Below the pieces are notes generated by a model. It worked only from the letters and a program-made list of their open reading frames with translations, had not been told where the DNA came from and searched no databases. From Amoebophrya sp. A120 (taxonomy: Eukaryota; Protista; Dinoflagellata): a stretch of DNA of 64,000 bases. Positions 56,792-60,741 of the stretch are shown piece by piece; position 1 is the first letter of the stretch; each line of letters starts with the position of its first letter. The DNA lies in contig CAJINV010000002.1 in the NCBI GenBank assembly GCA_905178155.1, forward strand, positions 10,334,146-10,398,145. The letters are read 5' to 3'. The position numbers and the translations under genes were made by a program.

Positions 56792-59700
56792 TTACGGAAA
56801 AGTGCACCCGCTTTGCTGCACGATCACCGCCGCGGCTTTCGCACCCGCCCGGCAGCACAGCTCCACGCTGCAGCCCTGGACGAGCTTGGACAGGAAACCG
56901 CCCACATACGCGTCCCCCGCGCCGTTCGTGTCCACGATTTGCTCCTTCGAAAGCTTCTCAATCGGATACAGGTTGGCCTTGCCGTCCTTTGCCACAATCG
57001 TCGCGTCTGCCCCCTGGGTGATCACCACGGTGCGCGATTTGGCTTTCTCGGACGGGAGCCTGGTTTGCGTTTGTTTTCGAGTTGTACTTCTTCGGCTATG
57101 TTAACGCTTCATGGGTCGTCAATGACGATGAAACGAACATCTTCGCGCTGTTCATGATTGTGATGCAAAAAGTTCTTGCGAAGTAAATATCGACGAGATC
57201 CAATTTCAAAAGACTCACATTGATATTTTGCAGGCGATCTCCGCAACATCGGTTTCCGTCCATCCCTTAACTTTTGCGAACACGCCCGCCTCGGTCTCGT
57301 TTCCGAACAAGAAGTCCACCTTCGGCAGCAATTTGGTCACCACTTCCCAGAACGGCGGCACCTCCATGATGAACGGCGCGGACAGGTTGAGGCAGTAGGT
57401 TTTGTTGTTGTCCAGGCAGTGCTGGCTGGCATCGTACATGGCGTCGGGGCACACCGTGATGAAAAACCCCGCGGAGTAGACCACGCTGGCCGCTTCCAGG
57501 ACGCCGTAGTTCGCCTTCAAGTGCTCGTGCTTGTAGTTATTCGCAGCAGAGAGATTCGCGACCAAACTGCGGTTTTCCCCCGTGATCAAGACGGCACAGG
57601 TACCGGTTGGAACGGACGGATCCTGATTGGGAGTGTTGGTCACGATAAAATTCACTCTGTTCCGGCAATTTTTCGTCGTGCAGCGACGAGCCATTGTCTT
57701 TGTCGCTCGTTAAATCAGGTGCATAAAAAATTCAAAAAGTTGTACAATAAAAGCACCCTTAATCCTCTATACCTCCATGTAAGTGGCAGTTACGCCCTCC
57801 TTCGTACAGATCGCCTTCATCTTCTCGCTGTAGCCGTCCTTGCCGACGCATATCCTGAGTAAATACGTACCCACACCAGAGTTGTAATGCAGATTTGCAA
57901 AGACAGGAAGACTTGTAATGCGCATCCGCATGAGAGCCATTTCCAATCGTGTTTTGGAATTTGTGATGCTGTGAACAGGACGAGCAGACGAATCTGCGAT
58001 GCGGCTGCACTTGCTAACCTGCACTACACTGCAGAGCGCAACTTGTCATGCGTGACTCACAAAACTCCTAGGTTTGTGTTGCAAAATCCCCATCATGACT
58101 CTGGTGTGGGTACGTTTTTACTCAGGATAACGCAGCCCATGTAGCTAGCAAAGGAGGTCCCGCTGTCCTTTTTATCGTTCTTCAGACACCACTGTGCCGT
58201 GCGGATGGAATTCTGCGTAGCGCCGCCCGGGATGTAATCCGTGTTGGGCATCTTGTCCAGGGTTTCATACCTGTGCAGGGTTGAAACGCGAGGGAAGCGT
58301 GCATGCAAATCTTTGCGTTGAACGTGAGTACAACTGAGCAGCTTTTTAAGTACTACAGACAGATTAGAATTTGCAACGCAAAACAGGGGCAACTTGCGAA
58401 CAAATCCCGAAGTCTCGCCTGTCGAAAACACAGGATAAATAAGTTCGAAAAAAAAATCCTTACAGTGGCTTGTGCTTGTCCTCGGCGAGCACCGCGTTGT
58501 TGGCTTCCAGCCCGTATTCCGTGAGCACGCTGGGTTCCACGGTGTTGCTCATGTCGAGAAGCGGGTTCCCCATGCCGAGAATTTTTCCCTGGCACAGGCC
58601 CGCGCCCAGCTCATGGCTGAGGTCCTTGACCACCTCCCAGGCCGGGGAACAGTCCTCGCGGCCGAAGTGGCCGTAGGCCGCCAGCTTCGTGAACTGGGGC
58701 TCTTTCAGGTTCAAGTCCCGCTGGATGCAGCCCGGCCGGAAGTCGAAGTTGCGCTTGACGATTTCGCACAGCTGCTCGTCCGTGAACCCGAACCGCGCCG
58801 ATCCGTACGTGTCCACAAACATGGACAACGGCTGGACCACGCCGATCGCGTACGACACCTGCACCAGGGCCCGCCGCGCGAACCCGTTGGCCACCAAACT
58901 CTTCGCCGCCCAGCGGGCCGCGTAGGCCGCGGACCGGTCCACCTTCGTGGTGTCCTTGCCGCTGAACGCACCGCCGCCGTGGGCGCCCCACCCGCCGTAG
59001 GTGTCGATGATGATTTTCCGCCCCGTCAGCCCCGCGTCCCCGTGCGGACCGCCGATCACAAACCGCCCGCTCGGGTTAATGTGGTAGATGGTGTCGGCAT
59101 CCAGCAGGTTCTCCGGCAGGATGGGCTTGATGACATACTCCATGATGTCTTTTTTAATCTTCTCGTTGTCCACGTCCGGTGCGTGCTGGGTGCTGATCAG
59201 AATCGTGTGCACCCGCGGCTTATCCCGGGCAAAAGTGTCGTATGGGTTGTACGCCGCGCAGGGAGGTAGTAGCAACAGGGTGACTATTGGCAGAAACAAT
59301 GCCGAAAAAAGTGTAGGAAATCGTAATACAAGCGTCGACGCCAAGACCGCTAGCCTGTTGTTCACATGACCACACATTCAGGACTCTTCATCATTTGTCC
59401 CAACATGGCAAAAATTGCTATTACCTCTCGTCCTGGACACAAGCAATACGATACTTCTGCAGGGCATAGTGCGGCACCATGGATCCGTCCTTCAATCTTT
59501 TGTACTCGGCGGTGACCTGGAAACATAAGTGGTGGAGGCAACAGATGCAAAAGCTGCTGCTAAACAAGAGTCCGCTCTCTCTATCAATTCTTGAAGAAAG
59601 AACAACCCCCGTCATAATTGGCATAATGCAAGTGTCGATATCGCGGGGGACGCACTGAGGGCGTGTAAGCCTGAGCGAAGGAAGGCTTTGGGGTCAAAAG

Positions 59701-60741
59701 ATACAATGTAGTTCAAGCTTCTAAAAAGACAATACAAAAACCCTCTTCCTCTTCTCCCGTTCTGGCACGGGGGAGCGAAGCATGGGTAGATATTCCGTTA
59801 ACTTACCTGCGTCTTCCCGTCCGGGCGTATCCAGGGGCACGTGCCGTCCTTGCGCACCTTGGTGAGCTGCCACCCCAGACGGGTGGACATCGAGTGCGTG
59901 AACGGCATCAGCTCCGGCGTCTCGTCGCTCGCGTACCCGAACATGTGTCCTTGGTCCCCGGCCCCAATGTCCTCGACCGCCTTCGTGCCCATTCCGTGGA
60001 CCCCCTGCCCAATGTCCGGACTCTGCTCCTCCAGCTTGTTTAACACGTCCATGGACGCATAATCGAGACCTGCGCAGCGTTTCCATCATCAATGCTGCTT
60101 TTTTTACCATAAACAAACAGACCCGCCAAACGTTTTTGTCTAAAACTTTTGTCCCTCTGGATAAATACTTATCATGCGACGAGTGAGAAAAAAAAAAGAC
60201 CTTTGTCCGCTGAATCGTAGCCGATGTTTCGGCAGGTCTCGCGCACCACTGCTTCGTAGTCCACGTTTGCTTTTGTAGTGATTTCGCCAAACACCATCAC
60301 CATGCCAGTTTTCGTGCTAGTCTCGCAGGTATGAAATGCAAAAGTGTCTGGGTCTGGAAGAATGCGCGATTTGTCATGCTGCTTTTCCATGACCCATGAG
60401 GTCTGAAATGCAGGACCTAGCATGACAGATTCTGTGCGATCTCTCTCATGCCTATCCTGCATGAGAAACTCCCTCCCGACTTGGTCAAAACTGGACGACT
60501 TTTGGTAATCATGCAATACAGATTTTTGCATGCTTTAGATGTAGCATGACAAGTTGCAATTTTCCAGACCCAGACATTTTTACATTTGATAGCAGGCGAC
60601 CCGCGCGTCCGGGTCCTGGGACAAGCATGCGTCCAGCACAGCATCGGAAACTTGGTCGCAGATTTTGTCGGGGTGTCCCTCGTTCACGCTTTCGGACGTG
60701 AACAAAAAGCATCCGGGCTTGGGCGGGCGAATGGACGTCAT
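56792..60741 (-). CDS. MAT-ADK: S-adenosylmethionine synthetase (MAT) - adenosine kinase fusion protein
   Basis: [44 protein letters not shown]. Continues without stop or intron via [18 protein letters not shown] into [47 protein letters not shown]. Confidence 0.93.
57851..58129. mobile_element. Family-B introner, 279 bp; TSD ACGCA
   Basis: Near-perfect TIR tatcctgagtaaatacgtacccacaccagagt. Joins YMGCV|GKDGY. Confidence 0.95.
59221..59468. mobile_element. Family-G-like introner, 248 bp, with degenerate TSD (CGGCT vs GTGCG)
   Basis: TIR tatcccgggcaaaagtgtcgtat / atacgatacttctgcagggcata. Removing element+5 nt gives GSMVPHRVHT, matching the MAT VPxRVHT motif. Confidence 0.85.
60330..60591. mobile_element. 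Family-A introner, 262 bp; TSD GCAGG
   Basis: Splits the conserved MAT motif RVAC|ET. No GT or AG is available in any junction register. Confidence 0.96.

Follow-up and report, generated by a model that had tools for sequence, protein, structure and literature searches.

Methionine adenosyltransferase (MAT, or SAM synthetase) converts methionine and ATP into S-adenosylmethionine (SAM), and methyl transfer then leaves S-adenosylhomocysteine (SAH). SAH hydrolase (SAHH) releases adenosine only as long as the adenosine is taken away, which adenosine kinase (ADK) does by turning it into AMP. SAHH runs forward only if both adenosine and homocysteine are withdrawn, adenosine mainly by ADK, and in ADK-deficient plants SAH rises 12-43-fold (PMC8137854). 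ADK and SAHH interact in plants (PMC7367456; an association is also given in PMC8137854). Pathway fusions are on record for Amoebophrya ceratii, namely a six-domain AROM+AroC protein and an AroG-tryptophan synthesis fusion, which the authors read as serving concerted expression (John et al. 2019, PMC6482013). Here we describe a gene of the same genus that joins MAT and ADK in one reading frame. It lies in a 64,000-nucleotide stretch of Amoebophrya sp. A120 (contig CAJINV010000002.1, positions 10,334,146 to 10,398,145), the whole of which we call the window. The fusion is real at the level of the DNA, of spliced RNA and of relatives, and its host is indeed a parasite, as the initial annotation had supposed: Amoebophrya belongs to the Syndiniales. 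Like the A. ceratii fusions, MAT-ADK places enzymes of one pathway on a single chain; AROM+AroC covers consecutive steps, however, whereas MAT and ADK are separated by the methyltransferases and SAHH. The plant ADK-SAHH association likewise ties ADK to the methyl cycle, physically or by regulation, but it is non-covalent and the partner is the adenosine-releasing SAHH, not MAT.

A single gene occupies positions 56792-60741 on the minus strand, from an ATG at 60741 to a stop codon at 56794-56792, and it is the only MAT or ADK gene within the window. With exons fitted to the best database match it has nine exons and a 2,223-nt coding sequence, whose translation is identical at every letter to P0002, a 740-residue "unnamed protein product" of Amoebophrya sp. 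A120 with a complete MAT followed by a complete ADK. The three MAT domains of Pfam, N (12-109), M (126-247) and C (249-389), score 146, 152 and 203 bits against cut-offs of 33, 29 and 25, and the metK equivalog TIGR01034 scores 531 bits against 309. Eleven residues that we take to form the active site (His23, Asp25, Lys26, Glu51, Asp130, Asp255, Arg261, Lys262, Lys282, Lys286 and Asp288) are identical in every fused sequence covering them, the mis-predicted N-terminus of P0013 being the sole exception to motif conservation, and the same positions are kept in nearly all of 24 stand-alone MATs. Matches in the Protein Data Bank (PDB) for residues 9-395 are MATs, and Foldseek places the model on AtMAT2 with a template modelling (TM) score of 0.93 by target and a root-mean-square deviation of 1.7 A over 385 columns. 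The three-domain layout and 60-70% identity are common to this half and canonical eukaryotic MATs (Arabidopsis MAT2, PDB 6vcz/6vd1; human MAT2A). By its full fold and motifs, the first half is a predicted SAM synthetase. The solved MATs stop where the fusion chain runs on into a kinase; core dinoflagellates use the MATX paralogue instead (PMC3923989).

The second half matches Pfam PfkB over 434-739 with 207 bits, above the cut-off, while the ribokinase model reaches 81 bits, below its cut-off of 300. PDB matches for about 402-740 are ADKs, with E values of 1e-113 to 1e-43 for the best, and the motif residues of eukaryotic PfkB-family ADKs (8rf7, 1bx4, 1lii) are kept. Asn412, Asp416, Gly461-Gly462, Asn466, Arg535, NxxE at 625-628 and DTNGAGD with Asp701, whose roles we take to be those usual for ADK, occur in all fused sequences covering them and in each of 26 stand-alone ADKs, apart from one Gly-to-Ser change in one of the latter. 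This half is accordingly best described as a predicted adenosine kinase, not a ribokinase or sugar kinase, and the earlier statement that both halves are complete with catalytic motifs is upheld. In the fusion the ADK is preceded by a whole MAT. The ADKs of core dinoflagellates (P0128-P0155, Noctiluca included) differ: many have a C-terminal Ssb-like OB fold (PF21473) and others N-terminal ankyrin repeats, and in Oxyrrhis the ADK stands alone.

The join lies inside exon 5 (59216-58464, 753 nt, residues 195-446), which holds the MAT C-terminal domain, the linker and the ADK N-terminus. This exon is open from YGHFGR at the MAT C-terminus (376-381) to GNPLLD at the ADK start (411-416), with no stop and no splice site used. 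The initial annotation had placed both enzymes in one frame within one exon, without a stop, an intron or a new start codon between them; all of this stands except the last point. An in-frame ATG is present at 58573-58571, encoding Met410. A separate start there is not plausible, because this Met is part of the GMGNP motif of ADK, where the first predicted strand (407-410) ends, and is Ile in the fused relative P0010. The linker had been given as eight residues, which is too long: in the protein of Amoebophrya AT5.2 the end of the linker aligns to residues that in the ADKs of plants and mouse belong to the native N-terminus, leaving a free linker of about five residues (399-403, positions 58592..58606). 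In all seven fused sequences checked, 11 or 12 residues separate the end motif of MAT from the start motif of ADK. Identity among fused relatives is only 15-62% over the junction, compared with 74-90% for MAT and 58-81% for ADK, so the linker varies in sequence while its length is nearly constant.

For the transcripts we considered ten sequencing runs, of which eight were used (X4 and X7 were left out); no run holding the locus is on record as RNA. Positions 58461-59216 are covered by three spliced contigs, one from each of the three RNA-like runs X1, X2 and X3 (one sample of one study), and by two unspliced contigs (X5 and X6, possibly the source of the assembly), with 0 other letters and 0 gaps, and thus the linker carries no stop or indel, in keeping with the first prediction. 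In X1 one contig of 3,098 nt runs from 61000 to 56679 in six listed pieces, skipping the introns, again with 0 other letters and 0 gaps; its three unlisted gaps of 74, 45 and 128 nt would fit three small exons. X2 and X3 each give one contig across 58461-59216, with zero depth in the flanking introns, a skip of 253 nt and loose ends at exon ends only. Neither has a branch or a loose end inside exon 5, although contigs can hide minor forms; within that limit, the junction shows no sign of the separate trans-spliced ADK transcripts that, by the initial annotation, would have refuted the reading. The raw-read RNA runs X8, X9 and X10 returned 12, 3 and 0 reads, on repeats only, and carry no weight for or against. 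The contigs show a spliced message crossing the junction.

The architecture is rare, whereas the initial annotation had named a common occurrence in databases as a refutation: 12 of 507 collected proteins match both halves, always with MAT first, and all fall into seven clusters at 90% identity. These are A120, Amoebophrya AT5.2 (P0013), a cluster with the transcriptome prefix GEMP01, which is used for Hematodinium in PMC6642578, and four environmental clusters. The junction exon was searched against longer proteins, and among the best 120 of 7,989 matches five records carry MAT and PfkB and one more covers the whole query; searches with the ADK part added P0248, a junction fragment. A junction-pattern search gave two metagenome contigs, both intron-free and both fused. 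The ADK records seen of Perkinsus chesapeaki, Oxyrrhis and Noctiluca carry no MAT. A profile search of 50%-identity representatives gave no two-half protein in the best 150 of 35,250, a weak test, as the known fusions are likewise absent there. With about 8,000 candidates taken by the searches, the fusion is present in both Amoebophrya and Hematodinium, that is, in Syndiniales of marine alveolate (MALV) groups II and IV, and stand-alone copies interleave. With each half at full length and the join shared by seven clusters, we regard a chance join as excluded by these sequences. Three MATs of 399 residues on contigs of 2.45-2.5 kb (P0236, P0237 and P0239) were considered as fusions read through a stop; since AT5.2 has a stand-alone MAT of like size, they are at least as likely to be plain stand-alone paralogues. 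Other methyl-cycle fusions also came up: P0053 (MAT+SAHH, 866 residues), P0226 (ADK+SAHH, 834 residues) and P0209 (MTHFR+ADK, 718 residues, two full-length members). Because these three branch apart from the Syndiniales sequences in trees, methyl-cycle fusions may recur independently.

In a MAT tree of 34 sequences (P0013 and P0248 were omitted as too short), all five fused and four stand-alone MATs form one clade with a support of 100/99, in which the Hematodinium-type pair is sister to the rest. The ADK tree has 37 sequences, after a motif filter removed 15 of 52 intended ones. In it the fused ADKs fall into two starred clades, each also with MAT-less ADKs, and the backbone is open. A quick ADK tree of 28 sequences with seven removed ones restored gave the same two clades; here P0249 (ADK only on a 1,243-nt contig, possibly a cut fusion) groups with the Amoebophrya fusions. 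One joint clade of both fused-ADK groups and their stand-alone neighbours is not rejected (approximately unbiased test, p-AU 0.56), a grouping that was named after inspection of the tree. The simplest reading is that the fusion arose once, in an ancestor shared by Amoebophrya and Hematodinium, and that later duplication or fission would have given the stand-alone copies; that such copies interleave in the trees would fit AT5.2, which has both the fusion and stand-alone MATs.

AlphaFold models of the A120 and Hematodinium chains reached a predicted local distance difference test score (pLDDT) of 92 and 90 and a predicted TM score (pTM) of 0.90 and 0.88. In both chains the linker appears ordered (pLDDT 87-94), residues 400-403 forming a short helix. 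Two domains of like size that were free to turn against each other would be expected to give a pTM near 0.55-0.6, and because the values found exceed this, the two domains are predicted to pack in a defined orientation. No PDB sequence covers both halves among the 60 matches shown of 63.

From this data we consider it likely that the one spliced frame yields a single two-enzyme protein, which would match the supply of SAM to the removal of adenosine both in quantity and in location. Each SAM spent on methylation should give one adenosine in the end, so that a fusion of the cycle's first enzyme to its last would fix the ratio and location of the two. ADK would be made and placed wherever the fused MAT is, by co-expression and tethering. 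MATs act as dimers or tetramers with active sites at the interface, and for this reason a MAT oligomer would display several kinase domains. The fusion may thereby couple entry and exit of the methylation cycle, as the initial annotation proposed. Substrate channelling between the two sites is unlikely, because the enzymes are non-consecutive and have ATP in common but no shared intermediate: SAM is no substrate of ADK, and AMP and ADP are no substrates of MAT. A more far-reaching version, in which ADK is rigidly docked on MAT after a single origin in the Syndiniales ancestor, the MAT oligomer serves as scaffold, each site regulates the other by sensing adenosine or SAM, and mixed oligomers with stand-alone MAT tune methylation during infection, seems doubtful to us. 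If true, it would be the first natural enzyme to link the two ends of the methyl cycle, and it would serve as a marker that unites the main families of marine parasites.

Several observations weigh against this coupling by one protein and against its single origin. The genome of AT5.2 also has a stand-alone MAT of 397 codons (g15738) and a second, divergent one of 471 codons (g17234, 33% identical to its best Swiss-Prot match and possibly MATX-like; both PMC6482013 supplement). Because of these stand-alone MATs, the fusion would not set the MAT:ADK ratio of the whole cell. Four stand-alone MATs lie within the fused MAT clade and six MAT-less ADKs inside the two fused ADK clades, where P0508 has its own N-terminus. 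The fusion label needs two changes on the MAT tree and three on the ADK tree, and for this reason the trees also leave room for two independent fusions. The two AlphaFold runs shared 58 alignment rows and were made without a negative control. The spliced contigs all come from one sample, and contigs prove neither one molecule nor the absence of minor forms; the evidence consists of DNA and assembled contigs, from which a single two-enzyme protein is the likely prediction.

Adjacent co-oriented genes could also have lost the stop and spacer between them, the working chimera then being kept without benefit from the link. About 98% of A120 genes stand in co-oriented blocks (PMC7789003), and the spacing equals that of joined native ends (stand-alone MAT tails of 2-12 residues in the clade, ADK leaders of 5-23). 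Also pointing this way are the unconserved linker sequence, the stand-alone copies close by in both trees and the many fusion partners that ADK tolerates among the records found (OB fold, ankyrin, MTHFR, SAHH). The link persisted, however, as identity between the ADK halves fell to 58%, the partner comes from the same cycle, other pairs of which are fused in three other single records, and the inter-domain placement is confident in two AlphaFold models; we find such a neutral fusion unlikely. Cleavage of the whole chain in the linker would instead release separate MAT and ADK. Some dinoflagellate polyproteins are cut after synthesis, and the linker lies just where one complete fold ends and the next begins. 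Yet it offers no conserved cleavage-like motif at its 15-62% identity, and its free part of about five residues is predicted to be ordered; we regard this route as very unlikely.

Still less probable is that a spliced-leader transcript starting inside exon 5 supplies ADK as well, or supplies most of it. The spliced leader is found on at least 37.8% of A120 transcripts (PMC7789003) and Met410 is in frame, but each run gives one unbranched contig, X2 and X3 have no loose end inside the exon, and a start at Met410, which is Ile in P0010, would lose most of strand 407-410. Among the long MAT or ADK records, many occur singly, have partner domains of an unrelated kind and are probably merged gene models; this fusion might have been another such artefact of assembly or annotation. 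That explanation is already refuted: the join lies within one exon, spliced and unspliced contigs agree without a difference, and it recurs in seven clusters, whose sources are genomes, environmental contigs and one transcriptome assembly.

The preferred reading of a two-enzyme protein concerns two textbook enzymes, and pathway fusions are known in kind; the MAT-ADK pairing is apparently undescribed. The open-licence literature gave no description (subscription papers lay outside the search). Term searches brought up no account of the fusion in the main texts of PMC7789003, PMC9478091, PMC12005148 and PMC3923989 and gave 0 hits in the supplements of PMC7789003 and PMC9478091; the main text of PMC6482013 makes no mention of it. 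The claim of novelty made earlier is therefore sound as regards a description, but not entirely as regards the record: a row of the PMC6482013 supplement lists both domains on one gene model without comment, and the architecture is thus already visible there and in public protein records. In that supplement the AT5.2 fusion is split over the neighbouring models g12039 (MAT-N/M) and g12038 (MAT-C and PfkB), and the rows listed add no remark on it. Among these rows no other model than g12038 has ADK as its top match, and SAHH is a separate gene (g240). Our data correct these split models. They present a conserved natural fusion, in marine parasites of wide occurrence, of two methyl-cycle enzymes that do not act in succession. 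The fusion offers a direct test of whether ADK tethered to MAT protects methylation capacity, and it could serve as a rare genomic marker of how Syndiniales are related. It also offers a natural template for enzymatic SAM production, for which artificial scaffolds have been used to bring ADK and MAT together (PMC8616028).

The remaining parts of the gene, all on the minus strand, are arranged as follows. Exon 1 (60592..60741) carries the start codon at 60741, MAT residues 1-50 and the GHPDK motif, and is preceded in the spliced contig by at least 259 nt. Exons 2 (60201..60324, residues 51-92), 3 (59807..60069, residues 92-179, with GAGDQG and PDGK) and 4 (59470..59516, residues 180-195) complete MAT up to the junction exon. 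The ADK continues in exons 6 (58129..58270, residues 446-493, with the GG switch and GGATQN), 7 (57773..57844, residues 494-517), 8 (57219..57622, residues 518-652, with Arg535 and the NETE motif) and 9 (56792..57059, residues 652-740, with DTNGAGD including Asp701 and the sole stop codon); a direct repeat leaves the 3' boundary of exon 6 ambiguous by 8 nt. Five introns are GT-AG and three are non-canonical (267, 253 and 284 nt). Intron 1 (60325..60591, 267 nt) is of introner type, with a terminal inverted repeat and a 5-nt direct repeat, and intron 6 (57845..58128, 284 nt) is an introner with inverted arms of 55 nt. The terminal inverted repeats of both begin with TAT, and A120 introners are described with such repeats (PMC7789003). 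Intron 4 (59217-59469, 253 nt) allows one exact cut only, and two spliced contigs show it removed; at the search settings used no inverted repeat was found in it. A further introner related to intron 6 lies in the 3' untranslated region (56400..56678) and appears to be spliced out in the X1 contig, which exits the window sequence at 56679 and has a loose end matching just below 56396.

Elsewhere in the window, the minus strand carries a multi-exon gene at 45900-51500, fragments of which presumably resemble an exportin-7/RanBP16-type protein. Minus-strand open reading frames at 38367-43852 encode similar domains in repeated copies together with Thr-rich stretches, as in a secreted or surface protein built of tandem domains.

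Finally, one of the intron-free fused contigs (L002) has in-frame TGA codons at 1617-1619 and 2067-2069 and ends with TAA at 2364-2366. The column of the first TGA holds Gly, Ala or Ser in each of 183 homologues and Trp in none, while that of the second is mixed; the protein of a second contig stops at the same place (P0007, P0238). A search for a selenocysteine insertion sequence gave no match. These two codons hint that UGA may be read as a small residue in an Amoebophrya relative, whereas UGA has been proposed to encode Trp in a K. veneficum strain (PMC6394959, PMC12005148).

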